16,519 nucleotides of DNA, taken from IMG/VR virus record IMGVR_UViG_2579778660_000005. One strand, given 5' to 3'. The notes beneath the pieces were generated by a model that ran no database searches, was not told the origin of the DNA, and worked only from the letters and a program-made list of their open reading frames with translations. Of this stretch, positions 1-16,519 are shown piece by piece. This DNA comes from a virus (lineage: Duplodnaviria; Heunggongvirae; Uroviricota; Caudoviricetes). Within the stretch, counting starts at the first letter, position 1. Each line of letters starts with the position of its first letter. The translations under genes and the position numbers were made by a program.

Positions 1-1284
1 TTACAGACTTCTGGAAGGTTGCGCAGCTCTTACAACACGCGGTTGATCTTCCGCAGCGTCTTCCAGCGCACTTAAATCACGGTCTTTCACCTCTGGCATT
101 TTCAGCGCAGAGATTAAACCAATTACTGAATATGCCATGATCATAATGGCGATCGGATACCAGGATTCCGTCATGGTGCAGAAAATCCCCGCCAGGATAG
201 GACCAAAACCGGAAGCGATAAGACCACCAATTTCTTTAGAAATAGCCATCCGGGTAAAGCGGTTTTTACAGCCGAACATTTCTGCCATGGTAATGTTTTC
301 CAGAGCAAATAATCCCAGCACCGCACAGTTATGAATCACAATCAGTGCAACCATAATGGTGCTCGGGGCATAGCTTTTATCTACAATGATAGAAAGCATT
401 GGCCATGCCAGCACAATCGCGGAGGTATTCATAATAATATACGGGATCCGGCGACCAATTTTATCGGATAACCAACCAAGGAACGGAATGGTCATAAAGC
501 CGAGAATCGAACTAATCATCAATGCATCTGTTGGAATTGCTTTGTTAAACAATAACGTCTGCACTAAATAGCCTGCAAGGAAAGTCTGAATTAACCCGGA
601 GTTACCCGCCTGACCAAAACGCAGCCCTGTTGCCAGCCAGAAGGATTTGCTCTGGAACATGCTACCAGCAGGTGCAGGTTTTGCTGTGGGTTGGTTGCTG
701 TCATTAACCTTCTCAAAGACCGGGCTTTCTTTCAGATTCATACGTAACCAGATAGCAAAGACCATCACGACAACGCTCGCCAGGAACGGTATACGCCATC
801 CCCACGCCAGCAGTTCCTCTTTACTGAGAATGAAGAACATAAAGGCCCAGATTGCCGTTGCGCTCAAGGTTCCGCAGTTAGTTCCCATAGCTACAAATGA
901 GGAGATAATTCCGCGCTTACCTTTTGGTGCATATTCCGCCAGCATCGTACCGGCACCGGAAATTTCCGCACCTGCACCCAACCCCTGAATAATACGCAGC
1001 GTCACCAGCAAGATGGGGGCAAAAACACCAATCTGTGCATAGGTCGGTAACACACCAATTAAGGTGGTACAGATCCCCATCATGGTGATGGTAATAAAGA
1101 GCACTTTTTTACGCCCTATTCTGTCGCCCATTTTGCCGAAAATAAATGCTCCGACAATACGCGCCACATAACCTGCACCGTAGGTTCCCATTGCCAAAAT
1201 TAACGCCATTGCCGTTGATGATTCAGGAAAAAATATTTCATGAAACACTAACGCTGCGCCGAGCGAATATAACTGGAAATCCAT
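1..1284 (-). CDS. ydfJ: MFS-type metabolite:H+ symporter (ProP/KgtP-like); N-terminus appears shortened
   Basis: 427-aa ORF with many hydrophobic helices and the MFS loop motif G-x-x-G-D-R-x-G-R-K-K starting near residue 50; aligns from memory with ProP starting at about ProP residue 25; an in-frame TGA lies two codons upstream of the ATG. Confidence 0.85.
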   Translation of the reverse strand: MDFQLYSLGAALVFHEIFFPESSTAMALILAMGTYGAGYVARIVGAFIFGKMGDRIGRKKVLFITITMMGICTTLIGVLPTYAQIGVFAPILLVTLRIIQGLGAGAEISGAGTMLAEYAPKGKRGIISSFVAMGTNCGTLSATAIWAFMFFILSKEELLAWGWRIPFLASVVVMVFAIWLRMNLKESPVFEKVNDSNQPTAKPAPAGSMFQSKSFWLATGLRFGQAGNSGLIQTFLAGYLVQTLLFNKAIPTDALMISSILGFMTIPFLGWLSDKIGRRIPYIIMNTSAIVLAWPMLSIIVDKSYAPSTIMVALIVIHNCAVLGLFALENITMAEMFGCKNRFTRMAISKEIGGLIASGFGPILAGIFCTMTESWYPIAIMIMAYSVIGLISALKMPEVKDRDLSALEDAAEDQPRVVRAAQPSRSL

Positions 1285-2068
1285 AATTCACAGGTGTTTT
1301 TTCCCATCCTGTGGTTTCCTTGGCGTTTTCTAGGTTTTTTCAGATAGTTGCATTTTTTAAAAAGCATCCTAAGTTCGATCTCAGTGTCTATCTGGGGCCT
1401 ATTTCTGTCCCATATATGCCCCAAAAAGACTCCCCAACAGATAAGTAGTTTTTCATGGATTTACGCGTAAAATCAATAACGGCTGGAAATCATTCAATAC
1501 TCGCACTATCGAAAAATTTACCAGCCAACCGCAGCACGTTCTTGCATAAGGCGTGTCTGCGGTTTTTCAACTATTCAGATAAATCACTCCCATCACATTC
1601 ATTCCTCCGCATCAAAGGCATATAGGCTATATCACCTTGATATTTTTCTTCTTCAGATAAAAACTGTTATCTATGTATACTTTTAAACCCAATCCGTGTA
1701 GAGTCTCTGCATAAGATAGTTTGCAGTTGCCGCTTCAGCTTGCGCCATAAACCGCCTGATTTTTGCTGCCACCTGTTAGCATTCCTGTATACCTGAAACG
1801 ACAATGTTTATCTACGAACTTTAAGAACACCCAAGATAAAAATTGTCAACTATATCATATATAACACATTACTAATTCGAGGCTATATGAACAGCATACT
1901 GATAATCACTTCTCTCCTTATCATATTCAGCATTTTTAGTCATGCCCTAATAAAATTAGGGATTGGCATATCCAATAACCCAGACAAAACCGATGTATAA
2001 GCCAACATATCCTGAATCAGACATACAATATCGCAATGAAAATCAATAATATTTTAAGGAATATCTTC

Positions 2069-2302
2069 ATGAAATCAAAAGACACCCTAAAGTGGTTCCC
2101 TGCGCAGCTTCCTGAAGTAAGAATTATCCTAGGGGATGCTGTAGTGGAAGTAGCAAAACAGGGAAGACCTATCAATACCAGAACATTGCTTGATTACATT
2201 GAAGGAAACATAAAGAAAAAATCATGGCTGGATAACAAAGAATTATTACAAACAGCGATATCAGTTCTTAAAGACAACCAAAATTTAAATGGTAAAATGT
2301 AA
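2069..2302 (+). CDS. ydfK: YdfK/YnaE-family small protein (77 aa)
   Basis: ORF track gives 88 aa from 2036; internal ATG at 2069 is preceded by AAGGA at 2056..2060 and matches the remembered YdfK start MKSKDTLKWF. Confidence 0.7.
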   Translation: MKSKDTLKWFPAQLPEVRIILGDAVVEVAKQGRPINTRTLLDYIEGNIKKKSWLDNKELLQTAISVLKDNQNLNGKM

Positions 2303-2618
2303 TATAATAAACTTACTTTTTTATCATTTTTCCACTTTAACAACATTTTGCTCCACTTTTCCACGACCAAACAACTTGAAATCTGGTTAAAATAACACGC
2401 AACACTATTCTTCTTCCTTGAGTCCGCCCGGAACTCGAAAAACAAACCGAGTTAAAGCCATTTTTCACAAAATCGATTTTGGGTCTCACCAAAATTACGG
2501 GGTTGCATACGCATTCGTTTATTTTCGAACGTGTACATACAAATATGCACAAAAATAATCAAAATTATTTTCTGAGATGCATTATGATATGAACACCAAT
2601 TTCGTATAGAGTCTCACT

Positions 2619-3209
2619 ATGTCTCGAATTTTTGCTTACTGTCGGATATCAACGCTGGATCAGACCACCGAAAATCAACGCCGGGAAATCGAAAGTGCAG
2701 GTTTTAAAATCAAACCTCAGCAAATAATCGAAGAACACATTAGCGGCTCAGCAGCAACCAGTGAGCGTCCTGGTTTTAACCGGTTGCTTGCTCGCCTGAA
2801 ATGTGGTGATCAATTGATTGTGACAAAACTGGATCGCCTTGGTTGTAATGCAATGGATATCAGGAAAACAGTGGAACAACTGACCGAAACAGGTATCAGA
2901 GTGCATTGCTTAGCATTGGGGGGCATTGACCTGACCAGTCCAACAGGAAAAATGATGATGCAAGTAATTTCAGCAGTCGCTGAATTTGAACGAGACCTTT
3001 TACTTGAACGCACTCATTCCGGGATAGTAAGAGCCCGCGGCGCAGGGAAACGTTTTGGTCGACCACCTGTGTTAAATGAAGAACAGAAACAGGTGGTATT
3101 CGAACGAATTAAGTCAGGTGTAAGTATAAGTGCCATTGCCCGGGAATTCAAAACCTCGCGGCAAACCATTTTAAGAGCCAAAGCAAAACTTCAGACACCT
3201 GACATATAA
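2619..3209 (+). CDS. pinQ: Serine recombinase, Gin/Hin/Pin-family DNA invertase
   Basis: 196 aa; N-terminal catalytic motif YCRISTLDQ and C-terminal HTH region typical of Pin/Gin invertases. Confidence 0.93.
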
Positions 3210-3306
3210 AAAATAATCTCGGTGTGAGATGCTTTACGTCTTCCAAGCCCCCTTCCTTGCCGTAAATGGAAAGATACATCTAATTATAGAATTTATATGT
3301 TTTACC

Positions 3307-3882
3307 CTACGGCAGTGCTGGCCATTCAATATCCTGTGCAGTTGACGTATCAACACGGTTCAGCAATACCCGATACTTTTTCCATGCTTCCAGCAACGAG
3401 ATTTCTTCCTCCGTTGCAATTTCCAGATCTGCAGCATCCTGAAGCGGCGCAATATGCTCACTGGCTACCTGCATCAGGTTGTTTTTTGTTTCTTCCGCCT
3501 CCCGGATCCGGAACAGTTTTTCTGCTTCCGTATCCTTCACCCAGGCTGTGCCGTTCCACTTCTGAAACTCCCCTTCCGGCGATAACCAGGTAACATTTTC
3601 CGGTAACGGACCGAGTTCAGAAATAAATAACGCGTCCCCTGATGCCACGTCATAAACTGTTTTACCCCGATGGTCTTCAACAAGATGCCACGATGCCTCA
3701 TCACTGTTGAAAACAGCCACGAAGCCTGCCGGAATATCTGGCGGTGCAATATCGGTACTGTTTGCTGGCAGACCTGTATGAGGCGGAATATATGCGTCAC
3801 CTTCACCAATAAATTCATTAGTTCCGGCCAGCAGATTATAAATTTTTATGGTCTGTGGTTGTTCACTCATTCTGAATGCCAT
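3307..3882 (-). CDS. tfaQ: Tail fibre assembly protein (Tfa)
   Basis: 191 aa recalled as lambdoid Tfa; start ATG overlaps the stop of the upstream tail-fibre ORF (TAATG arrangement). Confidence 0.85.
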
Positions 3883-4796
3883 TATGCAAGCCTCACAATA
3901 TAGTTAAATGCGATGTTTTTGACGGTGTTTTCCGCGTTACCAGCAGCGTTAACGGTGATGGTGTGTCCATGTGAACCAATCGCAACGGAGTGCGTATGAG
4001 CACCAATACCGACAGTATGTGCGTGAGCACCTGCAGATGCAGCTGTGCCGCTGACACTATGAGTGTGCGCTCCTGCAGCACTTGTATTCACACTGGCCGC
4101 AGACACTACCTTATGTACTGACCCATTTTGTGACCACTGGCTGATTGCTGATGCGCCTGTGACACTATGAGTATGGTTTCCGGCACTTGCGGCTGTACCG
4201 CTCACACTGTGCGTATGCGCCCCGGTGTTATTCGTGGATTTAGTGCCGTAATCAAACGACGATGTGGTTTTCGTCCCCAAATCCGTACTGGATGCGCTGG
4301 CGCTGTGGGTGTGCGATTTAATGCCGTCCTGTTCCTGAGACAATACGGCCCGACCACTGGCAGGTTTGCCCTTAATCGTCCAGCCACGCATATCAGGGAT
4401 CACGCCTGACGGATAAGCGGCTGCAAGTTTCGGGTAAGCAGATTTGTCAAAAGTCTGCCCCTGCATCAGGGCATAACCAGACGGAACGGTATCTGATGGC
4501 CACGGGATTGGTGCACCGACTGGATAAAACTCTGCAGGAGGATGAGCCGAGGTGTAAAGCTGCGCCCACGGCGACCAGTTTGCGTCGGTCGTATCCCGTC
4601 GTGAACGAATAAATGCCGGAGCATGAGCACCGCTTGTACCACTCCAGCCGATGAGTAACTCACCTTCGCCAACGGCTGTCATCCCTTTCAGGTGAATGAT
4701 ATTTCCATACGCTGTTGGATATCCGTTGTTATACACCTCGTATAACTCAAGACCTGCTGCCCCCTGCGTATTGTCTGTCAGCGCGGCTAACCGCAC
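3882..4796 (-). CDS. stfQ: Side tail fibre protein, C-terminal receptor-binding fragment (GTG start at a deletion junction; N-terminal part missing)
   Basis: 304 aa rich in Gly/Ser/Thr with repeated [15 protein letters not shown] His-x-His motifs typical of tail-fibre tips; starts with GTG at 4796 directly after an in-frame TGA and overlapping the stop of the L fragment. Confidence 0.65.
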
Positions 4797-5338
4797 TCAT
4801 CACCGCGATAGGTCCAGGTGCAGGTGTTGGCCAGCATGATACGTCCCGGAAAAACAGCGCCGTCCGTTTCCGTCGGTGTGGACAACACAAAGGAGGCACT
4901 GACCGCACTCAGTTCGCTGCACTGCTCGATGCGCCAGCGGCTGATCACCTCCTGCTCCGGATCGGCGTCGCTGTTTCCGTTGACGAAGTTCACCGCATCC
5001 AGAAAACGGGCGTAAACCTTACGCCTGACCACCGTTCCGCCGACCAGACTCTGCAGGTCTTCCGCCATCCCGGTGACCATGCCGTGCAGGTTAGAAACCG
5101 TCAGTGTCGGACGGGCAGCACTGCCCTTGCCGTTCAGTTCAAATCCCGTCCCCTGAATGGGGTATGCCTGATACTGCCGCCCCTGCCAGGTAACCGGCTC
5201 ACCTTTTTCGTTCTGCTCATTACAGAAAAAATAACGTTCACCACCGACCTCTGTCAGATCGATTTCCCAGAGCACCACCTGGGCTGACTGAGTGAGGCGT
5301 GTCGTCTCATGATGTGTTTCCTGTGGAATATCCTGCAG
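4787..5338 (-). pseudogene. Tail tip protein L fragment (lambda gpL homolog lacking its ATG and about 50 C-terminal residues)
   Basis: Residues QDIPQETHH...VVLWEIDLTEVGGERYFFCNEQNEKGEPVTWQGRQYQ...[12 protein letters not shown] match remembered lambda L nearly residue for residue; CTG at 5336..5338 replaces the initiator; stop follows ECG. Confidence 0.8.
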
Positions 5339-5831
5339 CGCCCCTAAATTGCCGCGGGCCAGTTCACCTATCAGAACGCCTATCTCCTGGCGGGCTGCTG
5401 CACTTTTCAGACCCAGCGAATGCGTGGCTTTTCCTGCCTGCTCCATTTTGCGGATATACACTTCTGCAGCACTGCTTACCCCCAGCTGGGCTGCCTTAGC
5501 ACGAAGCAACTCAGAAGATGAAAGATTCAGGCGGGTTGACATCACTGGCCGGAATGAGTTGTGCCGTTTCCTGTTCGAACTTAAGACGCTCACGTTCAGA
5601 CTGATACCAGGCTTTGCGCTCATGCGCGTCCATTTCGCCTTCTGCAACCGGCGGTGGTAATGCCAGAAATGCCGACACAATATCAACCACCCGATAAAGC
5701 TTGAGGTTGCTTTCATGCCCCCCTGCAACGGGTAGATTTTGCAGCCTTGCCGCAGCAGTCTGGCGATGTACACCTGACAGTGCCGCCAGTTGACTGATAT
5801 TCAGCGTCAGATTTTTTAACTCTCGATCCAT
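5339..5831 (-). pseudogene. nohQ: Terminase small subunit, Nu1-like (NohA family), frameshifted near 5535 and continuing in frame into the L fragment
   Basis: 106-aa frame (5511..5831) resembles the lambda Nu1 N-terminus; a second frame open from about 5542 carries Nu1-like C-terminal similarity and runs without stop into L. Confidence 0.55.
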
Positions 5832-6002
5832 ACCCGCTCCAGAATGTTTTAAACATGCATCTTGCGAACAACTTTAGGCAAACGGTGTTAGTGATGAACA
5901 AAAAACAATCAAAATCGACACCATAAAAATAAAACCACTGTAATATCAATCTATTACAGTGGTGGTGATGACGAATGAAATTTCAAAAACTAGCCTTTTT
6001 CC

Positions 6003-6022
6003 GCGACGCTCCCGCCCCGTGG
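6003..6022 (-). other. cos-like site (cosN remnant)
   Basis: Minus-strand CACGGGGCGGGAGCGTCGCGGAAAAAGG resembles remembered lambda cosN ACGGGGCGGCGACCTCGCGGGTTTTCG; lies about 180 bp upstream of the Nu1-like start, as in lambda. Confidence 0.35.
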
Positions 6023-6383
6023 CAGGCCACCCCACCGGGAGGACCCGACAGCCTGACAACCGTGACGAGCATCTGAAACAGAGCTTTACATAATGGCATG
6101 GGGATAATTCAGAAGGACATCACAGCATGCCCACACAAATTAGTGTGAGTGTCCTGTTTCTTACTACGCGCAGGACTGACGAGCATGAGGGGAAAATACG
6201 AGAACCGAAATGCCTTATCTTCAGAAATGCAGCCAGCATCCGAACTGGACGATATTGTAAATTCACCTAAATACGAGGCATTGCTGTAGTTGAATTACAG
6301 TACTGTATTAGCCTGACAGTGACAGAATACGATATTGACTCTGTCACTTGTGAAATGGTCAGAATGGTTAGCAGTTATGGTGA

Positions 6384-6590
6384 TCAATCAACCACCAGGG
6401 AATAATCCTTCGTATTCTTATCGTGCTTCACTAACGCTGCCTCAATTGCCCTGAATGCTTCCAGAGATACTTGATGTTCTATACATGCAATTATAACATC
6501 CGGGTAACTCATCGAAATGGTGCTATTAAGCATAGTTTTTACACGAACCTGCTCCTGGGAGGGGGCCTCAGTACATTGATCTTTATGCAT
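6384..6590 (-). CDS. Hypothetical small protein (possibly YnfO-like); start uncertain
   Basis: 68-aa ORF divergent from ydfO across a 290-bp intergenic region; no recognised motif. Confidence 0.35.
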
Positions 6591-6775
6591 TTTATCGCTC
6601 CATGCGTTTGTTCTTCACTTGTCGCTAAAAATATAACTTCAAATCTTTGAGCGTGGAAGTGTGGAAGTCACTGCGCGTTGATCTTGCATACATCGGTCGT
6701 TTGTTTTCCCCCCTGGCATATCAGAAAAACCAGGTTTTATAGCGGAATCAATACTATGTATTTTCCACCTGACTT

Positions 6776-6805
6776 TTGACACAAATCATCAATAAAACAT
6801 ATAAA
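6776..6805 (+). promoter_or_regulatory. Candidate sigma70 promoter for ydfO (TTGACA, 18-nt spacer, TATAAA)
   Basis: -35 TTGACA at 6776..6781 and -10 TATAAA at 6800..6805, about 75 bp upstream of the ydfO start. Confidence 0.4.
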
Positions 6806-6878
6806 GGTCAGACCAGATTGAAACGATAAAAACGATCTTGCAAACTACGTGCCCTCATACCATATGGAAGGTTTATCT

Positions 6879-7289
6879 ATGGATCAGGTAGTCATTTTTA
6901 AACAAATATTTGATAAAGTTCGAAACGATTTAAACTATCAATGGTTTTATTCTGAGCTAAAACGTCACAATGTCTCACATTACATTTACTATTTAGCTAC
7001 AGATAATGTTCATATTGTATTAAAAAATGATAATACAGTGTTATTAAAGGGCCTAAAAAACATTGTGTCTGTCAAATTTTCAAAGGATAGGCATCTTATA
7101 GAAACGACCTCTAATAAGCTGAAATCCAGTGAGATCACATTTCAGGAATACAGAAGAAACCTTGCTAAAGCAGGAGTTTTTCGGTGGGTTACAAATATCC
7201 ACGAACAAAAAAGATATTACTATACCTTTGATAATTCATTACTCTTTACTGAAAACATACAGAGCACATCACAAATATTTCCACACTAA
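6879..7289 (+). CDS. ydfO: YdfO-like protein (DUF1398)
   Basis: ORF track starts at a GTG (6849); ATG at 6879 is preceded by GGAAGG at 6866..6871 and gives 136 aa starting MDQVVIFKQ, matching remembered YdfO. Confidence 0.75.
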
Positions 7290-7608
7290 ACCATAACGTC
7301 CGGTTTTTTCTACCCCAGCACCGGACTGGCTGACATAAAGAGCAACCCCACGTTAAGTTGACGCGTTAATAACCCGGTGTACATCGTTTTTGATTATTCC
7401 CCCACACTCGCGCAGAAGGAGTTCCCCGTCAGGCTACAGTCATAATTAATGCAGGAGCACAGCGACGATACAGCGCACAGAAACAAATCAGGCATCCATT
7501 AACTTCACACAAACGATGCATTGCATCGACAGGAGTAATGGCGTAAGTTGGATTCTTGGCGCTCTTTCGCCACCGGCGAATCTTCAGCGGATTATCCTTG
7601 GCCTGTTT

Positions 7609-8088
7609 TTATCTGAGGCATTGCTCACGAATGTATCGCTGTGCCCCCTCCAGTTGTTTTTGCATTATGATCAGTCTTTCTCTGAGGGAGAAATAATCCC
7701 GTTCAGCGGTGTCTGCCAGTCTGGGGGAGGTTGCATTATCCACGCCGGAGGCGATGGTGGCTTCACGCACAGACGGACAGATTGCTTTGATGTGCAACCG
7801 ACGACGACCAGCGGCAACATCATCACGCAGAGCATCATTTTCAGCTTTCGCATCAGCTAACTCCTTCAGGTATTTTGCATCGAGTGCAGCAACATCACGC
7901 TGGCGTATCTGCATGTCAGTAATGATTGCGGTCGCCTGGTTGAGTTTTTCCGACACATTATCGCGTTGCGCTTTGTAGGTAATGGCATTATCACGGTAAT
8001 GATTAACAGCCCATGACAGGCAGACGATGATGCAGATAACCAGAGCATAAATAATCGCGGCAACTCTGCTCACTGCTCTATCCCCCAA
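7609..8088 (-). CDS. rzpQ: Spanin inner-membrane subunit Rz (i-spanin)
   Basis: 159 aa; N-terminal TM helix [33 protein letters not shown] and coiled-coil region near-identical to remembered lambda Rz. Confidence 0.9.
7671..7853 (-). CDS. rzoQ: Spanin outer-membrane lipoprotein Rz1 (o-spanin), embedded in Rz in the +1 frame
   Basis: 60 aa with lipobox LVVVGC and proline-rich core [18 protein letters not shown], very close to remembered lambda Rz1. Confidence 0.85.
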
Positions 8089-8603
8089 CAGGCTAATGCG
8101 CTTTCCTGGTCACGACGAATAACCTGACCATAACAGTTATTTGAACGAATGCGGCAATCGCGCCCCCTGTCCTTAATCCACCAGCGAATCGCCTCGCAGG
8201 CACCTTTACGATCACCTGCATTCAGCCGTTTATAAAACGTCGACGGAAAACACTTACCGGGGCCAATGTTATAGGGACAAAATGACGCGATACCCGCTTT
8301 CTGGGGTTCGGTCAGCGGCACTTTAATATTGCGCTCCACCCATGCCAGCGCCTTATCGCGTTCAATGGCATTAACCTGAGCACATTTTTCCTTCGTCAGT
8401 TTCATGCCCGGAATAACAGATTTACCATCCACCATCGTGGCACCACGACAGATGGTCCATATGCCGGAACCATCGCGGTATGCCGTAGTGTGGTTACCCT
8501 CTTTTTCATCCAGAAACTGGTCAAGTATCTGTGGAGCTGATGCGCCTGCTCCAATCAGCGCCAGAGCTGCAGCTGACAGGCCGTATTTGATTTTTGCGTT
8601 CAT
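8070..8603 (-). CDS. rrrQ: SAR endolysin (phage-21 R-type lysozyme)
   Basis: 177 aa; weakly hydrophobic Gly/Ala-rich N-terminal signal-anchor-release helix [16 protein letters not shown], then E...D...T lysozyme motif region. Confidence 0.9.
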
Positions 8604-8658
8604 GGATATTTATCAGGATGCTACCAATGAAAGATACTGGAAAGCCAACCGCAAAAAG

Positions 8659-8973
8659 CTAACAACCCGTAATCGAGTTATCAGAACTGTTAATTTTTAT
8701 GGTATACCGCGCCTCTGAACAGGGGCGCGTTTCTGGCAACAGCTCGTCCCCTTCACATAACCCGGCAGCAACATCCAGGAAGACCTGTCTGATGCTCCTT
8801 CTGGCTGCTGCCTCATAAAACTCCAGCGCGGCACCTTCAACACGGACCAGCGAGATGTCCAGGTCAAAAATTTCACCGTCAAAGCGTTCTTTGTCCCGTA
8901 ACGCTAAAGTTACCGTAACTTTATTCTCAAAATTGCGGATCCCTTTCACAATCAGTTCATATTTTTGAGTCAT
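8659..8973 (-). CDS. ydfR: YdfR-like protein (DUF1327) inside the lysis cassette
   Basis: 104-aa ORF between holin and endolysin genes, the same position as ydfR in Qin-type prophages. Confidence 0.65.
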   Translation of the reverse strand: MTQKYELIVKGIRNFENKVTVTLALRDKERFDGEIFDLDISLVRVEGAALEFYEAAARRSIRQVFLDVAAGLCEGDELLPETRPCSEARYTIKINSSDNSITGC

Positions 8974-8977
8974 TGAA

Positions 8978-9193
8978 TTACTCTCCCCGTGCAGCCTTAC
9001 GCTTGTCTTCTTTAATCTTGAAATAAAGGTTTGTCAGGTACGTCAGCAGGCCAAATACCAGGCTACCCAGCACACCTATTGCTGCCCACTGTGAGGGCGT
9101 GACTTTATCGAGCAGCTGTAAAAACCAGTAGCCAGCACTGCCTGCGGAGGTGCCGTAGGCAATGCCTGTTGAAATTTTGTCCATGGATTTCAT
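8978..9193 (-). CDS. essQ: Pinholin, S21-like class II holin with dual-start motif (71 aa)
   Basis: Sequence [26 protein letters not shown]...[13 protein letters not shown] matches remembered S21; two in-frame ATGs at 9193 and 9184 (minus) preceded by GGAGGTGA; the 90-aa track ORF is an unsupported upstream extension. Confidence 0.88.
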
Positions 9194-9295
9194 AGCCTCA
9201 CCTCCGCACGGAACGGATGGCATAGTTATTATGTGTAGGCTTCCAGACACATCAATCAGAGCCTTAATTGATATATATGCTGGAGACGATGCAAT

Positions 9296-9319
9296 ATAAA
9301 AAGCTCGCCGTAGCGAGCT
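9296..9319 (-). terminator. Rho-independent terminator (minus strand) between lipoprotein gene and holin
   Basis: Minus-strand AGCTCGC-TACG-GCGAGCT stem-loop followed by TTTTT. Confidence 0.55.
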
Positions 9320-9444
9320 AATAAAATGTATTTCTCTGATATTATGTTTATTTGTATTAGCTCAGACTTGACATCACAGGTTTCGTATATAGAACATCAT
9401 CAAATCTGTCAGTTTGCTATGAATGAGATATAGTAATTGAAGAG

Positions 9445-9840
9445 CTAACCTCGCATGTCAAAGCCAGATTTCTGAAAATCTCTGTAGACTTCCGGATTGT
9501 TGAAGGCCGGAAATTTGGCTTTATGAGCTGCGGACTTTATCGCTTCGCAATAGGCTTTATCACCGTTACTGGTAGATATTTTTAACGCCGTGCCATCCTG
9601 AGAGAATTCCATATGCAACCTGCATTTTTTCCCTTTCCAGTTATGCGGCTCATCAAGTTTGGCATTAATTGCAGCTCTGATTCCCCGCGCTTGCGCCCCC
9701 CATTCATCCTGATCATCCCAGCGTCCTGAACTGCAACTACCTGTAGCAGTAGTTTTGTGGCAATCTGAAGGGTGTAAAGGTGTGCATCCCGCAACAAAAC
9801 CGACCCAAAAAGTCAACATAACGATTTTCTTTAATCCCAC
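9445..9840 (-). CDS. Lipoprotein with diverged TolA domain III-like C-terminal domain (paralog 1)
   Basis: 131 aa; GTG start preceded by GGAG; signal peptide with lipobox VAGC; C-terminal part aligns with paralog 2 and with remembered TolA domain III. Confidence 0.75.
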   Translation of the reverse strand: MGLKKIVMLTFWVGFVAGCTPLHPSDCHKTTATGSCSSGRWDDQDEWGAQARGIRAAINAKLDEPHNWKGKKCRLHMEFSQDGTALKISTSNGDKAYCEAIKSAAHKAKFPAFNNPEVYRDFQKSGFDMRG

Positions 9841-9990
9841 TTCTTGCTCCTCAATCCATTAAAATCTCAGCAATAGTAGTTGTTACGTCCGCCACTGGCT
9901 CAGAGCTGACTATCCGCTAAATTTAGCTCAGTGCCGTAGTTGTGTCAGAACAAACCTAAGCCGAAACCGTTTATTACAAAACAATAAATA

Positions 9991-10419
9991 TCAGGGTTTA
10001 AAATCCAGCACCCCATTTTGAAATACTTTATATACTTCCGGCGAAGGGGGGGCAGGTATATCAGCATTCTTTATCGCATTCATCGCTTCACGACATAAAT
10101 CGAGGTCTCCACTTTCTCTTTTAACCTCCAGTAGAAGGCCATTCGGGGCCATATGCATTCTCAGTGTACACTCTTTTCCTGAATACTTACTCGCATCCCC
10201 GAACTGTTTTTCGATGGCGCTCTTGATTTGATGGGCATACAGACGGATATCCTCACTAACATCAGAAGTACGTTCAGATGAACTCACATACTGTGTCTCT
10301 ATTGCTTTATCGGAGTAATATGATGTACGGTCATGATAATTTGTCGATACAGCATCAGTGCACCCGATAATAATCCCACTAATAATCAACGTAAGAATTG
10401 ATGCGCTACGAAAACCCAT
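9991..10419 (-). CDS. Lipoprotein with TolA domain III-like C-terminal domain (paralog 2)
   Basis: 142 aa; ATG preceded by GAGG; lipobox IIGC; C-terminal 86 aa (YAHQIKSAIEKQF...GKECTLRMHMAPNGLLLEVK...IPAPPSPEVYKVFQNGVLDFKP) about 60 percent identical by eye to the remembered E. coli TolA C-terminus. Confidence 0.8.
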   Translation of the reverse strand: MGFRSASILTLIISGIIIGCTDAVSTNYHDRTSYYSDKAIETQYVSSSERTSDVSEDIRLYAHQIKSAIEKQFGDASKYSGKECTLRMHMAPNGLLLEVKRESGDLDLCREAMNAIKNADIPAPPSPEVYKVFQNGVLDFKP

Positions 10420-10448
10420 TTTTCCTCACATATGTCATATAGTAAAGG

Positions 10449-10454
10449 ATTATA
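10449..10454 (-). promoter_or_regulatory. Candidate -10 element (TATAAT) for the lipoprotein genes
   Basis: Perfect TATAAT on the minus strand about 30 bp upstream of the paralog-2 start; -35 is weak. Confidence 0.3.
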
Positions 10455-10952
10455 TATACCGTTGTTTTGGACGCTCAAACAGCGAATCAGATCAAATAAA
10501 ACGCACATTTGTTAACATTTACACAAAGTCTGCGTGGGATATTCTGAAAGAATATCCATAATGTGGAGAGAATCTATTGAAGTGCATGGTGCCGGGTGCC
10601 TCCCGGTGAATTCAGTACCAGCACCTGAATCCGCGATTATCCCATATACCTACTCGCTGATTGCCCCTCCGCACAGGGGGATTCACCATGCCAGTTTCTT
10701 TTAACAAACTCCCCGCAAACCAGAGAACAGTCAACCGCCTGAATTGTGAAGTATTTAAAAATTTCTCCCGCTAACTGATACCCGGCTAACAGTCTGGCGT
10801 TTTCTTTTTCAGCAACGGGAAAGCAACAACCACCACACCCGCCACCAGCACACCGTCAGCCAGCACTGACATTATCCGGCTGCTGCAATGCCATTCACAA
10901 AAACAGTAAGCAATCACTTTTTACCGTAACAGGTGATAATCCAGATATGTAT

Positions 10953-11306
10953 CTACCCCAGATGAGTAATCCGAAGTTCATCCATACCACAGGTCCTGGC
11001 TATTCTGTTGTACTCCTGAACAAGAGCAAATAATTCTGAATTAGCAACCATGAACTCATCGCAAACCCTCTGTATAGCATCACTATTCAGAATAATAACG
11101 TCTCTTCCCGAAAGACGATCAGGAGCACAGAACAAAACTGTCAAACGGCTGAAGGCCTTTGCTCGTGCTGCATTGACTATATCAATACGCTGCCTAAGGA
11201 TGAAACACCCCGACGCCTCATCAATATTCACTCTACCCACACCATATGAATGATAAATATTTAATGCTGAAAAAACCATTAGACCGTATAACAAACACTC
11301 AATCAA
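10953..11306 (-). CDS. Hypothetical protein (117 aa, TTG start; possible cargo gene)
   Basis: Long ORF in an AT-rich stretch, same orientation as the late operon, directly downstream of the tRNAs; no recognised motif; start codon uncertain. Confidence 0.35.
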   Translation of the reverse strand: MIECLLYGLMVFSALNIYHSYGVGRVNIDEASGCFILRQRIDIVNAARAKAFSRLTVLFCAPDRLSGRDVIILNSDAIQRVCDEFMVANSELFALVQEYNRIARTCGMDELRITHLG

Positions 11307-11416
11307 TACTTAACAGAACTTTTATTTTTGACAAACATATAATATTTTCAACAATATCCTGAGCCAGGTATATTCCAGTATAAGGCTCTGCCGGAAGGAA
11401 TCTGGAAGAATGAATA

Positions 11417-11493
11417 TGGCGCGCTGTACTGGATTCGAACCAGTGACCGATTGCTTAGAAGGCAATTGCTCTGTCCGGCTGAGCTAACAACGC
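11417..11493 (-). tRNA. argO: tRNA-Arg (anticodon UCU)
   Basis: 77-nt cloverleaf folded by hand: acceptor GCGUUGU/ACAGCGC, D-stem GCUC/GAGC, anticodon stem AUUGC/GCAAU with loop CUUCUAA, T-arm ACUGG-UUCGAAU-CCAGU, 3' CCA. Confidence 0.9.
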
Positions 11494-11597
11494 TGAATAC
11501 CGATAATGGACCGCCATCGGGGACCCGCCCCCCCCCGCACCAACAACCCTGTTATCGTGTCGTCTGCTCTTCCTGATAAGCTCATGGCGGTTTGTGA

Positions 11598-11673
11598 TGG
11601 TGGCCCTTGCTGGATTTGAACCAGCGACCTGGCGATTATGAGTCGCTCGCTCTCACCACTGAGCTAAAGGACC
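11598..11673 (-). tRNA. ileZ: tRNA with CAU anticodon (Ile2-like or Met)
   Basis: 76-nt cloverleaf: acceptor GGUCCUU/AAGGGCC, D-stem GCUC/GAGC, anticodon loop CUCAUAA, T-arm GCUGG-UUCAAAU-CCAGC, 3' CCA; one mismatch at the top of the anticodon stem. Confidence 0.8.
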
Positions 11674-11712
11674 GGGAGCAGAATAATAACGGTCCGTAAT
11701 TAATTCCGCAAT

Positions 11713-11736
11713 AAAAAACCCGCTCGGTGGCGGGTT
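11713..11736 (-). terminator. Rho-independent terminator downstream of Q (tR'-like)
   Basis: Minus-strand AACCCGC-CACCGA-GCGGGTT stem-loop followed by a U-tract. Confidence 0.6.
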
Positions 11737-11783
11737 GTAGAAACTCTTCTAACGTCAGGCATAAAACGCCCATCTTTATGACG

Positions 11784-11811
11784 AATTTACCACAGATTCC
11801 GGAAAAATCAA
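11784..11811 (-). promoter_or_regulatory. Late promoter pR'-like (-35 TTGATT, 16-nt spacer, -10 TAAATT)
   Basis: Lies immediately after the Q stop codon; remembered lambda pR' is TTGACT/TAAATT in the same position relative to Q. Confidence 0.5.
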
Positions 11812-11816
11812 CCTTG

Positions 11817-12638
11817 TTACCTAGTTACCTTTTTTAACTGCCGCTCAGCCCATGCTTCTTCAATATCAAACCGGGTCACCAGCGCATCATAGAATTTCTT
11901 AACTGTTTTTTCCCATGACGCGCGTGTTATCTGGTTTGTCACCTCGCATATAGCATTAAATGCCTCCGTTGATGGTAGTCTTTCATAGCCCCGACCACCA
12001 CAACGCTGGCAGTCTCTGATAACAGGCATACCACGTTTTACCGACTCTTCACGGTGAATGGCGACACCACGCCCACGGCAATCCTTACAGGCGGTGGAAA
12101 CCTCACCCTTTCCGCCACACTCCGGACAGGCAACTTTTACCACCTCCCTGACTTTTTTCCATTCTTCCCAGTAAGACGGATACACACCTTTCGTACACTT
12201 TGCCCATACCGGCGGCTTACCATCCGGATACTGGACCTTGTTTGTAAAAACTACGCTTTCAATAAATTTTTCCCCATAGCAACAAGGGCACTGCTTTTTA
12301 CTCGCTGCGCTGCGGGCATAATCCTCAAAAGCGTACGAAGCCATAATGCGCATCACTAACGGTTTTATTTCTGCCGGAAGTTTTCTCAACGCCGCCACAC
12401 GATCGCACCGACTGAGTGCATAATCTGCCAGTAATTCTGTTGCCCGCGCCCTGTCATTCATACTGATGCCCATTTTCCCCAGGAACGCAGAAAATCCCAT
12501 CTCAGCCCGATTCTGTGTCATGCCCTGCGCGGCCATCACATCAGTGATACTCAGCGCATCTTTTGACGTTGAGGCCGATGCATCGGTCAGGCCAGGGGAT
12601 TTTGGGGAGTAGTATTTCGGTAAATCTTCCAGTTTCAT
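11817..12638 (-). CDS. quuQ: Late-gene antitermination protein Q (lambda Q family)
   Basis: 273 aa; shares with remembered lambda Q the blocks SPKSP...TDVMAA.GM, CxxC-GxG zinc motifs (CKDCRGRG, CQRCGGRGY) and TVK..YDALV. Confidence 0.9.
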   Translation of the reverse strand: MKLEDLPKYYSPKSPGLTDASASTSKDALSITDVMAAQGMTQNRAEMGFSAFLGKMGISMNDRARATELLADYALSRCDRVAALRKLPAEIKPLVMRIMASYAFEDYARSAASKKQCPCCYGEKFIESVVFTNKVQYPDGKPPVWAKCTKGVYPSYWEEWKKVREVVKVACPECGGKGEVSTACKDCRGRGVAIHREESVKRGMPVIRDCQRCGGRGYERLPSTEAFNAICEVTNQITRASWEKTVKKFYDALVTRFDIEEAWAERQLKKVTR

Positions 12639-13009
12639 TTTTTGACCTGCTCTTCATGCATTATGGGGTAAATCTTCACCCCCAGACGTCCACCAGATAC
12701 TGGCTGACCACGAACGATATTGATTTCATCAAACTGCTCATCGTCCATTAACACTCCCGCATGCGTCAGCGCATCCAGCGGTGCTTTCAGGATATTGTCC
12801 AGGTCGCGACGACGCTTATCCGGTGGCTCTGCAATCACCTTTATCGCCAGCCTTCCGGACAGGCTTAATTTCAGCCGCTGCTGGCGAACAATAAGCGCCA
12901 CAGCCCGGCGATAACGCTTTCCCTCCTCCGAGATAAAATATGTGCTGCCACGGCGTCGCCAGTAAGTGTTCACCGTCGGCGGGTAAGGTAAAACCAAATC
13001 TATGAGCAT
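12635..13009 (-). CDS. rusA: Holliday junction resolvase RusA
   Basis: 124 aa with RusA-like blocks LPYPPTVNTYWRR and DKRRRDLDN..K...DALT; ATGA overlap with the Q start. Confidence 0.85.
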   Translation of the reverse strand: MLIDLVLPYPPTVNTYWRRRGSTYFISEEGKRYRRAVALIVRQQRLKLSLSGRLAIKVIAEPPDKRRRDLDNILKAPLDALTHAGVLMDDEQFDEINIVRGQPVSGGRLGVKIYPIMHEEQVKK

Positions 13010-13021
13010 CAGTCACCTCTT

Positions 13022-14026
13022 TTACCCAAGCACGCCAGTTGCAAAGGCGTGATCAAGAAAACGAAAAATTAAATCAACCTGAGAACCATGCTTTTCTTCG
13101 AACGCCAGAGGATCCGCATGAAACTCGTTGTGATGCTCCCGACACAGCGGTAGCGTGAAAATATCGTGAGATTTTGTCCCCATTCCGCCCTGACCATGAC
13201 CAATCAGGTGATGGGGATCGTCGGCTGGCTTACCACAACACGCACACGGCTGTGTCTTCACCCAGCGTGTGTATTTCTCGTTAACCCAGCGGCGACGTTT
13301 AGGTCGTTTCATGAAAGATTCCGGAGACTCAGGATCAACGGCAATGCTGACCACCGTCTTTTCCTGTGGTGGGTTCTGTTGCTGGTGGGCGTGAGGCAGC
13401 GGCGCAAGATTTTTTGTGCGCTGTTTCAGTATGCTGGTGGCGGTCTGCTCTCCCGGTACGATGTCGCTTTCACGGTACATTGAGCGGATTTTTTCCGCAC
13501 GCAACCCCAGCGAACCACGTAATACCGCTTCCGGTAGCGCGTCCGCCACCTGATTGCGGACCGCCCACCAGGATAATTCAGCCAAAGATAATTCACGCTC
13601 CTGCGTACCGCTTATTGCGTGACCGATGACGTCAATCATCCATGCTGACAGGTTTTGATGAGCAAGTTGCTCGAGTGATTCGGATGTCTGGTCACGCAGC
13701 TGGTTGTCGCAGTGCCAGCACAACACCATTGCGCCGGTACCATAACGGTGAATGACGGTTTCGCTGTGATGATAATCGCCGTGTGGCCACTGGCAGGATT
13801 TAATATGGCGCAACAGCCAGTCAGACAATGCACCAGCACCACCAGCAGCACGAATTACCCGTGCGTTACTGAAAAACGGCAGCAATGTTTTGTCTTCCAC
13901 CAGCGGCTGGCGAACGGCAGGAACGACCCCGGACGGCAGATTACGCATGCTTTTCGGTTCCGGCTCCACCAGTACCCGGGTATTGTGGAATACCGGCATG
14001 GATTCACGGCCCGGCTTAACGACCAC
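13022..14026 (-). CDS. ydfU: DUF968 protein with C-terminal HNH-like Cys/His motif (YdfU-like); start uncertain
   Basis: 334 aa; C-terminal CACCGKPADDPHHLIGHGQGGMGTKSHD...CREHHNEFH; track start is GTG, an ATG lies at 13999. Confidence 0.7.
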   Translation of the reverse strand: MVVKPGRESMPVFHNTRVLVEPEPKSMRNLPSGVVPAVRQPLVEDKTLLPFFSNARVIRAAGGAGALSDWLLRHIKSCQWPHGDYHHSETVIHRYGTGAMVLCWHCDNQLRDQTSESLEQLAHQNLSAWMIDVIGHAISGTQERELSLAELSWWAVRNQVADALPEAVLRGSLGLRAEKIRSMYRESDIVPGEQTATSILKQRTKNLAPLPHAHQQQNPPQEKTVVSIAVDPESPESFMKRPKRRRWVNEKYTRWVKTQPCACCGKPADDPHHLIGHGQGGMGTKSHDIFTLPLCREHHNEFHADPLAFEEKHGSQVDLIFRFLDHAFATGVLG

Positions 14027-14321
14027 CAGCCCGAGTTCCGGTAGCCTCCATAATTGCAGGCACTAGCGCCGTGAACTTTTCACGCTTATCCCTGGTGTCG
14101 ATAGCCTTCCAGCGTTCGAATATCTTCACTCGATTAACGCCAAGCGCTCGCTGATCAACCGCGCCACCTTCATCTGTGACACGCTGAACATCGATGTTCG
14201 GGCGCTCTTTCAAAGCCCAGAATGCTTCAGTGATTAATATCGTCGCCTGCTCCTGTGTCATTCCTGGTCGACATATCCAGGCATCCAGAGCCTCACGAGC
14301 CTGTTCAGGAGTGATTTTCAT
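14016..14321 (-). CDS. Hypothetical phage protein (101 aa; possibly YdfX-like)
   Basis: ORF overlapping both neighbours in a compact operon downstream of the Cro-like gene; no recognised motif. Confidence 0.45.
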   Translation of the reverse strand: MKITPEQAREALDAWICRPGMTQEQATILITEAFWALKERPNIDVQRVTDEGGAVDQRALGVNRVKIFERWKAIDTRDKREKFTALVPAIMEATGTRAGGR

Positions 14322-14532
14322 TGTTCAACCGCCCCGCCCGCTTCGTCTTACGATATTCGTCATAAACCTTGGGATCATACAGAAGCTCGCCGCCAGATGC
14401 CTCCTGTAGACGCATCGCGCGACCTTCAGGAACCAGCTCTTGCCATTGAGAAACAGCAGATGGGTCAACGCCAGCAGCTTTCGCTACTTTGGCTTTCGTA
14501 CCGTAAAAATTAATTACGTCTGATTTAAACAT
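14305..14532 (-). CDS. dicC: Cro-like HTH regulator (DicC-like), 75 aa
   Basis: HTH-like segment GTKAKVAKAAGVDPSAVSQW; start taken at the internal ATG 14532 preceded by GGAGG; divergent from the repressor gene. Confidence 0.75.
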   Translation of the reverse strand: MFKSDVINFYGTKAKVAKAAGVDPSAVSQWQELVPEGRAMRLQEASGGELLYDPKVYDEYRKTKRAGRLNNENHS

Positions 14533-14545
14533 CGCACCTCCAGTA

Positions 14546-14559
14546 TTGAGTTTTCTCAA
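14546..14559. promoter_or_regulatory. Candidate DicA operator (TTGAGTTTTCTCAA) in the dicC-dicA divergent region
   Basis: Imperfect inverted repeat whose 10-mer AGTTTTCTCA recurs twice downstream of dicA. Confidence 0.45.
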
Positions 14560-14609
14560 TGCTAATCACTCAAGGAATCTCAAGTCAAGGGTTATTAAGA
14601 TATCTAAAT

Positions 14610-15017
14610 ATGAACGAGAAAACTTTAGGTCAACGCATTAGAGAAAGACGTAAGCAGGTAGGTTTAAGTCAAAACGGTTTAAGCAAAGCTGCTGGCGTAT
14701 CTGGCTCATCAATTTCATTATGGGAAAGTGACCATACAGCCCCGCGCGGGCAAAATTTGCATCGCCTCGCCGAGGTATTGCAATGTTCACCAACCTGGAT
14801 ACTGTTTGGCGACGAGGACAAAACACCAGCTCCCCCTGTTTCACTCGATAGTGCCTTAGACTTATCGGAAGATGAGTTAGAGATGCTGCGTTTGTATCGC
14901 GCACTTCCTAAATCAGAGCAACAAGCACAACTCAGCGAACTCCGCGCCCGCGTTGAGAATTTTAATCGCCTGTTCACCGAGCTATTAGAGGCTCGCAAAC
15001 GCAACAAGCATCAATAA
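14610..15017 (+). CDS. dicA: XRE-family HTH repressor (DicA-like), 135 aa
   Basis: Contains LQCSPTWILFGDEDK and a C-terminal region matching remembered DicA; start at ATG 14610, the 152-aa track ORF is an upstream extension. Confidence 0.88.
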   Translation: MNEKTLGQRIRERRKQVGLSQNGLSKAAGVSGSSISLWESDHTAPRGQNLHRLAEVLQCSPTWILFGDEDKTPAPPVSLDSALDLSEDELEMLRLYRALPKSEQQAQLSELRARVENFNRLFTELLEARKRNKHQ

Positions 15018-15081
15018 TCATCCCTTCACAAAATTTTAAAGCCTTACATTTCAATGTATTGGCTTTATCTTGCGTCAATAC

Positions 15082-15133
15082 TTGAGTTTTCTCATCAAAA
15101 AGCCTTGACGAAAAATAATGAGAAAACTAAATT
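15082..15133 (+). promoter_or_regulatory. Candidate operator-promoter for the ydfA operon
   Basis: -35 TTGACG (15105..15110), 17-nt spacer, -10 TAAATT (15128..15133); 10-mer AGTTTTCTCA at 15084..15093 and its reverse complement TGAGAAAACT at 15119..15128 inside the spacer. Confidence 0.45.
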
Positions 15134-15209
15134 ACCTCCATCAACACACCGCACGGTGTTCTCAGCAAACAGTTCCGCTACCCCGGCGTTAAGGGGAAAT
15201 GAGGTCAGC

Positions 15210-15365
15210 ATGGATACTATCGATCTTGGCAACAACGAATCTCTGGTGTACGGCGTGTTTCCAAACCAGGACGGCACGTTCACCGCAATGACGTATACCA
15301 AAAGCAAAACGTTTAAAACCGAAAATGGTGCCCGTCGCTGGCTGGAAAGAAACTCAGGTGAGTGA
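15210..15365 (+). CDS. ydfA: YdfA-like small protein (51 aa)
   Basis: ATG at 15210 preceded by AAGGGGAAATGAGG; protein MDTIDLGNNESLVYGVFPNQDG...; stop overlaps the next start. Confidence 0.7.
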   Translation: MDTIDLGNNESLVYGVFPNQDGTFTAMTYTKSKTFKTENGARRWLERNSGE

Positions 15366-15366
15366 T

Positions 15367-15798
15367 ATGGATTTCGACACAATCATGGAAAAGGCTTACG
15401 AAGAATACTTCGAAGGCCTTGCCGAAGGCGAAGAAGCTCTCAGCTTCAGTGAGTTTAAACAGGCACTCAGAATAAGAATGTGCTCTCACAATGACGCGGA
15501 GCACAAATATGAGAAGCAAAATCAGACCGCAGAAAATTTTGTTCTGGAACCCGGAGAAACGCTTTTCAAAATTCCCGTTACGTGCCCCATTTGCGGTTTT
15601 ACATCAGAAGAACTTGACGACTCCTGTAACAATCAGGAAACAACCAAGTATGTCGAAGATGATACCGAGTGCGCACGAAGAACGATTATATCCACGAGTC
15701 CAAACTCCAGAACCAATAAATCTCACTTTGAGAGGGTGATTAACCCACTAGACTGGCCCCCTGAATCTCCAGACAACCAGTATCACTTAAATAAGTGA
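15367..15798 (+). CDS. YdfB/YdfC-like protein with CPICGF motif; 3' end replaced by IS2 sequence
   Basis: 143-aa ORF starting [17 protein letters not shown]; its last about 16 codons and stop lie inside the IS2 left end that begins at 15749. Confidence 0.55.
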
Positions 15799-15839
15799 TA
15801 GTCTTAATACTAGTTTTTAGACTAGTCATTGGAGAACAG

Positions 15840-16205
15840 ATGATTGATGTCTTAGGGCCGGAGAAACGCAGACGGCGTACCACACAGGAAAAGATCGCAA
15901 TTGTTCAGCAGAGCTTTGAACCGGGGATGACGGTCTCCCTCGTTGCCCGGCAACATGGTGTAGCAGCCAGCCAGTTATTTCTCTGGCGTAAGCAATACCA
16001 GGAAGGAAGTCTTACTGCTGTCGCCGCCGGAGAACAGGTTGTTCCTGCCTCTGAACTTGCTGCCGCCATGAAGCAGATTAAAGAACTCCAGCGCCTGCTC
16101 GGCAAGAAAACGATGGAAAATGAACTCCTCAAAGAAGCCGTTGAATATGGACGGGCAAAAAAGTGGATAGCGCACGCGCCCTTATTGCCCGGGGATGGGG
16201 AGTAA
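15840..16205 (+). CDS. insC: IS2 transposase OrfA (InsC)
   Basis: 121 aa [56 protein letters not shown]... matches remembered InsC. Confidence 0.92.
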
Positions 16206-16519
16206 GCTTAGTCAGCCGTTGTCTCCGGGTGTCGCGTGCGCAGTTGCACGTCATTCTCAGACGAACCGATGACTGGATGGATGGCCGCCGCAGTCGTCAC
16301 ACTGATGATACGGATGTGCTTCTCCGTATACACCATGTTATCGGAGAGCTGCCCACGTATGGTTATCGTCGGGTATGGGCGCTGCTTCGCAGACAGGCAG
16401 AACTTGATGGTATGCCTGCGATCAATGCCAAACGTGTTTACCGGATCATGCGCCAGAATGCGCTGTTGCTTGAGCGAAAACCTGCTGTACCGCCATCGAA
16501 ACGGGCACATACAGGCAGA
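16163..16519 (+). CDS. insD: IS2 transposase OrfB (InsD), 5' part only, in the -1 frame relative to insC
   Basis: Translation (V/M)[45 protein letters not shown]... matches remembered InsD; slippery heptamer A-AAA-AAG at 16157..16163. Confidence 0.85.

Follow-up and report, generated by a model that had tools for sequence, protein, structure and literature searches.

An IS2 insertion in the early-left operon of a Qin-like defective prophage of Escherichia coli splits a conserved gene on the opposite strand

In E. coli K-12, transcription of the ydfA-ydfB-ydfC-dicF-dicB-ydfD operon starts at a promoter that lies ahead of ydfA and is repressed by DicA; induction of the operon is highly toxic (PMC5069750). 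IS2, for its part, has inverted repeats of 41/42 bp and two genes, orfA and orfB, with an A6G frameshift window (PMC3299598). The classical polar IS2 insertion, galEP3 (gal3), lies in the leader of the gal operon, and Rho-dependent terminators have been found within IS2 (PMC3737525). The stretch of DNA analysed here (hereafter the window; 16,519 nt, IMG/VR record IMGVR_UViG_2579778660_000005) is a Qin-like defective prophage from the E. coli draft genome GCA_000627855.1, and its operon of dicBF type is interrupted by an IS2 copy (Table 1). The event is one already known in kind, an ordinary IS2 insertion in a cryptic prophage.

Table 1 Features of the window (positions are those of the 16,519-nt stretch).
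Feature	Position	Strand	Basis
Pin-type invertase	2619-3209		prophage survey of window
Rfam IS009 match	3341-3539		
STnc100	10530-10720		
Two tRNAs	11420-11673		
Cro-like regulator gene, divergent from repressor gene	14305..14559	-	Pfam P22_Cro E=4.4e-16
cI/DicA-type HTH repressor gene, 152 aa, HannyBb type	14559..15017	+	Pfam HTH_3 E=2.2e-15; HannyBb identity
Promoter-like site, TTGACG, 17-nt spacer, TAAATT at 15105-15133, within 17-nt inverted repeat	15079..15134	+	consensus scan; inverted repeat
ydfA (DUF1391), first gene of the operon	15210..15365	+	Pfam DUF1391 E=1.7e-28
Truncated operon-strand ORF	15367..15798	+	YdfB-like residues 1-33, then cassette-encoded part with CPICGF motif, then IS2-encoded end
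3' remnant (codons 60-106 and stop) of 106-aa three-helix membrane-protein gene	15604..15748	-	sequence comparison
Predicted left copy of target-site duplication, CCCAC	15744..15748	.	inferred via junction logic of other IS2 copies
IS2, left 771 nt of about 1.33 kb	15749..16519	+	sequence comparison; continues to window end
IS2 left inverted repeat (IRL), 42 bp	15749..15790	+	sequence; IRL length from PMC3299598
insC (orfA), 121 aa	15840..16205	+	Pfam HTH_Tnp_1 E=1.8e-19; translation
A-AAA-AAG programmed -1 frameshift heptamer	16157..16163	+	sequence, insC frame; A6G window in PMC3299598
insD (orfB), N-terminal 120 codons, -1 frame	16160..16519	+	open up to window end

A 17-nt inverted repeat (TACTTGAGTTTTCTCAT / ATGAGAAAACTAAATTA) brackets the -35 element of the sole promoter-like site upstream of ydfA and is a probable operator of the 152-aa repressor. 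Judged by its position and by the description of the K-12 operon (PMC5069750), the segment 15079-15134 is presumed to be the repressor-controlled promoter and operator of a ydfA-...-dicB type operon. The remainder of the prophage (1-14000) is heavily eroded, with an MFS transporter gene at the left edge, remnants of tail L and tail-fibre genes, and lysis, Q, RusA and DUF968 genes; between the DUF968 gene and the Cro-like gene, no replication genes were found in the window.

The IS2 sequence begins at 15749 with TAGACTGGCCCCC (read as TAGACTGGCCCCCTGAATCTCC when 14800-16519 was inspected) and lies in the same direction as the operon. Its 771 nt differ from the IS2 copy of K-12 HMS174 at two positions (15780 and 16354; 99.7% identity), and a single base of the IRL departs from the K-12 copy, G at 15780 in place of A. 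Megablast of window positions 15000-16519 against 5,426 complete E. coli genomes returned thousands of places at least 99% identical, annotated as "IS3-like element IS2 family transposase", and complete IS2 copies in related loci measure 1331 bp. A partial insD gene with an HTH_21 domain was also called by the gene caller on the source contig; the orfB DDE (rve) catalytic domain and the right inverted repeat fall past the end of the window. The InsC/InsD frameshift heptamer, which the initial annotation of this DNA had placed at 16157..16163, reads A-AAA-AAG in the insC frame, with the -1 frame open from 16160. This anatomy, together with the junction, could not arise by chance.

The boundary of the element was fixed from five other IS2 copies, whose 5-bp direct repeats (GTTGC, CCGGT, CCCAC, CCAGG/CCCAG and ACTAC) are abutted by TAGACTGG on the left side and by ...CAAATCCA on the right. 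Because the duplications at all five copies abut there, the first base of IS2 is T 15749 of TAGACTGG, and therefore the left target copy should be the CCCAC immediately before it. The duplications, the IRL and the identity to K-12 IS2 thus bear out the initial placement of the IS2 left end at 15749, inside the 3' part of the ORF. An end further to the left, suggested by many hits that reach 8-18 nt upstream of 15749, was ruled out by the duplications; the upstream resemblance arises because the top-ranked hits have similar target sequences, such as TAACCCAC in FDAARGOS_1277. The locus from that strain (L015, 1501-1508) carries the identical TAACCCAC and a CCCAC duplication, another (L016) has GGGTGA...CCCAG, and a third (L017) is listed with them. 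Such similar sequences before other IS2 copies hint at a loose target preference, though the ranking of hits favours resemblance of this kind.

On the operon strand, IS2 entered 382 nt into an ORF that starts 1 nt past the ydfA stop. The interrupted ORF comprises 127 host codons, a hybrid codon 128 (C/TA, the slash marking the insertion point), 15 more IS2-encoded residues and an IS2-encoded TAA, so that, as had been proposed, both its tail (16 residues counting the hybrid codon) and its stop come from IS2. In uninterrupted loci, namely strains 118UI, 7/2 and B4103-1 and phage HannyBb, the ORF extends 64 codons beyond the insertion point to a total of 191 aa (WP_000344958.1); a natural end at this position was seen in none of them. 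Because the ORF extends to 191 aa in these relatives, it does not end here naturally, and IS2 has cut it at codon 127 of 191. The host sequence at the insertion point in intact relatives is TTAATCCAC/TCCCCCAAACC (with longer left context, GGGTGATTAATCCAC/TCCCCCAAACC). The isolated phage HannyBb matches window 14037-15749 at 98.9% identity and has a repressor of the window's type, encoded by a 459-nt gene.

The label "ydfB/C-like" first given to this ORF is right for its first 33 residues only, because K-12 homology stops at 15467 (ydfB codon 33) and neither YdfC nor its PHROG showed similarity to the window ORF. In this lineage the 3' end of K-12 ydfB and the whole of ydfC are replaced by a 517-nt cassette; full-length ydfB and ydfC are both absent from the window, which retains ydfB codons 1-33. 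RefSeq/PGAP annotation at cassette loci usually consists of just a "ydfB pseudogene". In some other prophages (P0032 and P0035) the operon-strand ORF reads in frame through the overlap described below into a YdfC-like C terminus that is 75% identical to K-12 YdfC, giving products of 245-271 aa.

The insertion has a second casualty, which the initial annotation missed: IS2 splits a conserved 106-aa gene on the opposite strand. In intact loci this ORF (MSQPPINPLKNMKIDYWYKAL...VVKFF) occupies the minus strand and overlaps the operon-strand ORF (3738-4058, 321 nt, in intact locus L004), and it is also found in phage HannyBb (L022). The cut falls at codon 59/60, within the invariant GEW-NHP motif, and residues 60-106, which remain in the window, share 98% identity with the form encoded at intact E. 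coli loci. Full-length homologues, 50-87% identical, come from Escherichia sp., Scandinavium, Yersinia and metagenomes; their genes are flanked on one side by the prophage's repressor gene, with which they are convergent, and on the other by its early-left genes. Gap-free codon alignments gave a dN/dS of 0.09-0.19, with changes concentrated at third codon positions. A profile search recovered 301 family representatives at E<=1e-3 (101 at E <= 1e-10), nearly all of 100-115 aa, and W17, E59, N62, H63, R81 and G87 are invariant in the family, which is marked by three hydrophobic helices and the conserved motifs DYWYK, GEW-NHP and R81. On its conserved position, its low dN/dS and these 301 representatives, the minus-strand gene is judged to be real, and the insertion would inactivate it.

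An AlphaFold model of the 106-aa protein, of moderate quality (pLDDT 67.7), consists of three helices and a hairpin; Foldseek of this model against viral structures gave nothing below E = 0.2, and searches of Pfam, NCBIfam, PHROGs and PADLOC for a function gave no matches. The family is widespread beside prophage repressors, mostly missed by annotation pipelines and without a name in the libraries. Public assemblies contain many alleles of the 106-aa gene that are frameshifted or interrupted by insertions, as seen among the database proteins P0006-P0025; several differ at T-runs, and sequencing errors may account for some. In intact loci a perfect 8-bp hairpin (CCTTAAAA-N9-TTTTAAGG) lies over the ribosome-binding site of the 106-aa gene (L004 about 4070-4094, minus strand).

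The frames of the two overlapping ORFs are aligned codon for codon in antisense, so a stop in the plus frame would require TTA, CTA or TCA in the 106-aa gene. None of these three codons is found in the gene in six prophage copies and the Citrobacter copy, against 2.4-4.7 expected per gene from the codon usage of neighbouring genes (P(0) = 0.004-0.07 each). Windows of 106 codons free of TTA, CTA and TCA numbered 0/198, 0/1034 and 11/1299 in the neighbouring genes of three loci and made up 12-22% in three others. Just upstream of the overlap, the plus ORF contains a conserved EPGE..IP..CPxCGF.SEE motif that varies synonymously at third positions. We advance, tentatively and at slightly less than even odds, the reading that the DNA cut by IS2 codes on both strands by selection, the operon-strand ORF having been kept stop-free in diverged Escherichia, Yersinia, Scandinavium and Citrobacter prophages. 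The plus ORF is then probably translated and kept open, while the sequence of the overlap is dictated by the minus-strand gene.

The competing explanation is that the plus-strand "gene" is a shadow ORF, open merely through the rarity of TTA, CTA and TCA, and that the minus-strand gene is the one real gene cut. Codon-for-codon alignment of the frames fits this explanation, as does the plus frame's dN/dS of 0.4-1.7 in the overlap, where no amino-acid constraint was seen, against 0.09-0.19 for the minus-strand gene; PGAP, moreover, usually annotates the ydfB pseudogene only. In one homologue (L013) the plus ORF is broken by a TGA stop within the motif, and distant family members outside phage early operons, although much lower in GC content, have 9-17 of the three codons and as many stops in the plus frame. 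Set against these points are the lack of TTA, CTA and TCA from all seven copies, the scarcity of stop-free windows in three of the loci, the conserved motif with its synonymous changes just outside the overlap, and the start of the ORF directly after ydfA. Stop-codon avoidance and the CPxCGF motif weaken a pure shadow reading and stop short of rejecting it fully, and we regard it as possible though rather doubtful.

In comparisons of the plus ORF (window 15367-15748) with L003, L006, L009, L010, L012, L013 and L026, the overlap was stop-free and CTT was the main Leu codon. The locus is unmentioned in the E. coli overlapping-gene literature that we consulted. If selection does maintain coding on both strands, a possible reason for the open plus frame is that ribosomes translate through it when the operon is derepressed, for example shielding the dicF/dicB/exo transcript from Rho. 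In that case one insertion of IS2 would destroy both overlapping genes and, in the same stroke, break the continuity of the operon. The evidence that the plus ORF is kept open across genera is statistical, and the locus might offer a tractable system in which to test for selected antisense overlap in temperate phages.

The end of the window coincides with that of NCBI contig JJMD01000062.1, inside IS2, and because the contig ends there the window end is a draft-assembly break in a repeated element. In strain B4103-1, DicF lies 454 nt past the insertion point (Rfam) and dicB about 680 nt past it, followed by ydfD, exo, xis and int. Since about 560 nt of IS2 and at least 454 nt of host DNA would precede DicF beyond the contig end, DicF could not have been seen; DicF and dicB in relatives lie at least 1 kb beyond that end. 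The window has no Rfam match to DicF at the gathering threshold, in agreement with the initial annotation, whereas the same search finds DicF in two related loci. We infer that DicF and dicB are missing from the window owing to the contig's ending in repeated IS2. More generally, a draft contig that ends inside an insertion sequence tells nothing of the DNA beyond it.

A draft contig ending inside an insertion sequence might also raise the suspicion that the IS2 junction is a mis-join of the assembly. The join, however, coincides with the first base of the left IS2 repeat and not with an arbitrary position, an IMG/VR contig has the identical junction sequence, two contigs carry the chimeric ORF (the 157-aa form is on record on JJMD01000062.1 of GCA_000627855.1), this contig is listed for 3 samples, and real insertions 37 nt upstream and 171 nt downstream exist in complete genomes. 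We consider a mis-join extremely improbable. The IMG/VR contig UViG_2579778873_000005 matches window 6180-16076 at 100% identity, and it too stops inside IS2.

Six IS2 insertions in this operon were compared in complete genomes. Five are simple, with 5-bp duplications (CCAGG in NRZ105822, GTTGC in 15A, GGCAC in GPEC1209, GCAAC in Eco_23-2678 and CCGGT in K-12); for the remaining one, FDAARGOS_1249, only a right end could be placed. Downstream of the element, dicB and ydfD are intact and the exonuclease gene is of full length at every site but that of K-12 (5/6), where IS2 interrupts ydfD itself and is followed only by a truncated pseudogene of exonuclease VIII. The statement that the insertion "replaces the downstream operon", or truncated it, is accordingly unsupported, because the contig ends in IS2 and five of six comparable insertions keep the downstream genes. 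Counting that of the window, three independent insertions in the same orientation have struck one 321-nt gene, at L004 positions 3841-3845 (L018), 3878-3882 (window) and 4049-4053 (L001). Their clustering may reflect target preference, selection, or bias from how the search joined matches.

Searches for the two junctions of the element were also made. The left junction of the window occurs in 0/5,426 complete E. coli genomes; its sequence is absent from genome_contigs and metagenome_contigs, and in viral_contigs it is found only in the source's own IMG/VR contig. The predicted right junction (IS2 end …GGGGCAAATCCA, then (C/T)CCAC-TCCCCCAAACCAATAAAAAAGATGCC) is absent from viral_contigs, and an IS2 right end with the second copy of the target duplication was not found in the viral, genome and metagenome collections scanned. 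No protein among the database matches has the tail ...GLGEW-VDLPLYFQTSVIT that a conserved right junction would predict; this weighs little, since truncated or short products frequently go unrecorded.

These missing right-junction sequences are what would be expected if an adjacent deletion or rearrangement mediated by IS2 had removed the rest of the operon, that is, the 5' half of the membrane-protein gene and dicF, dicB and onward, leaving the right end against unrelated DNA, which corresponds to the view of the initial annotation. The Qin prophage of K-12 offers a parallel, being eroded beside its own IS2, where a shortened exonuclease VIII gene and part of an MFS gene are left. The contig end inside IS2 nevertheless accounts for the missing sequence, the window itself is without any sign of deletion, and the comparable insertions speak against such an event, five having intact 5-bp duplications and 5/6 keeping dicB, ydfD and the full-length exonuclease gene. 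We judge a deletion unlikely. A base difference may also count against a simple insertion: position 15744, with which the predicted duplication immediately beside IS2 begins, is C in the window and T in five intact relatives (TCCAC), a change that corresponds to I61V in the minus-strand gene.

On balance, a simple polar IS2 insertion of known kind is the most likely explanation, and we put at roughly 85% the probability that a standard copy of IS2, a member of the IS3 family, simply inserted in the early-left operon of a Qin-like defective prophage. IS2 would have arrived through its usual copy-out/paste-in transposition, the simple insertion being flanked by a duplicated 5-bp CCCAC, and dicF-dicB-ydfD-exo-xis-int would still be present beyond it. 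About 1.3 kb of IS2 would now stand between the repressor-controlled promoter (around 15105-15133) and the toxic dicF/dicB. Because IS2 carries Rho-dependent terminators (galEP3 reporter, PMC3737525), native-promoter expression of dicF/dicB and of the recombination and integration genes should drop through polarity; outward transcription from the right end of IS2 may occur. The locus would add one more case of the erosion or silencing of a cryptic prophage by an insertion sequence, here upstream of the dicF/dicB inhibitors of cell division.

Compared with the systems described at the outset, the window has in common with the Qin dicBF operon a repressor gene paired with a Cro-like one, a putative promoter ahead of ydfA, the ydfA gene and the initial 33 codons of ydfB, and intact relatives of the window have DicF, dicB and ydfD downstream. 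It differs in that its repressor belongs to another immunity type (152 aa, as in HannyBb) and in that its lineage carries the 517-nt cassette, with the antisense 106-aa gene, in place of the ydfB 3' end and ydfC. The window resembles galEP3 in the placement of IS2, which comes after the promoter (here a presumed one) and ahead of the distal genes of the operon; a block to read-through would be expected here too. The IS2 copy of K-12 Qin (in ydfD; L002) resembles that of the window in its IRL, insC, A6G site and insD start, in its orientation to the dicB operon and in the kind of prophage, but the site in the window is about 1.1 kb further upstream, before dicF/dicB, whereas the K-12 copy follows dicB. 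Closest are the insertions of O111:H21 strain 15A (NZ_CP077477.1) and NRZ105822 (NZ_OZ501607.1), in which an operon of the cassette type is interrupted in the same orientation and the same 321-nt minus-strand gene is hit, the plus ORF of 15A even gaining the identical 16-residue IS2-encoded tail. Both are independent events, 171 nt downstream (15A, GTTGC) and 37 nt upstream (NRZ105822, CCAGG) of the site in the window, and in both DicF (demonstrated with Rfam for 15A) and dicB-ydfD-exo are present beyond IS2.
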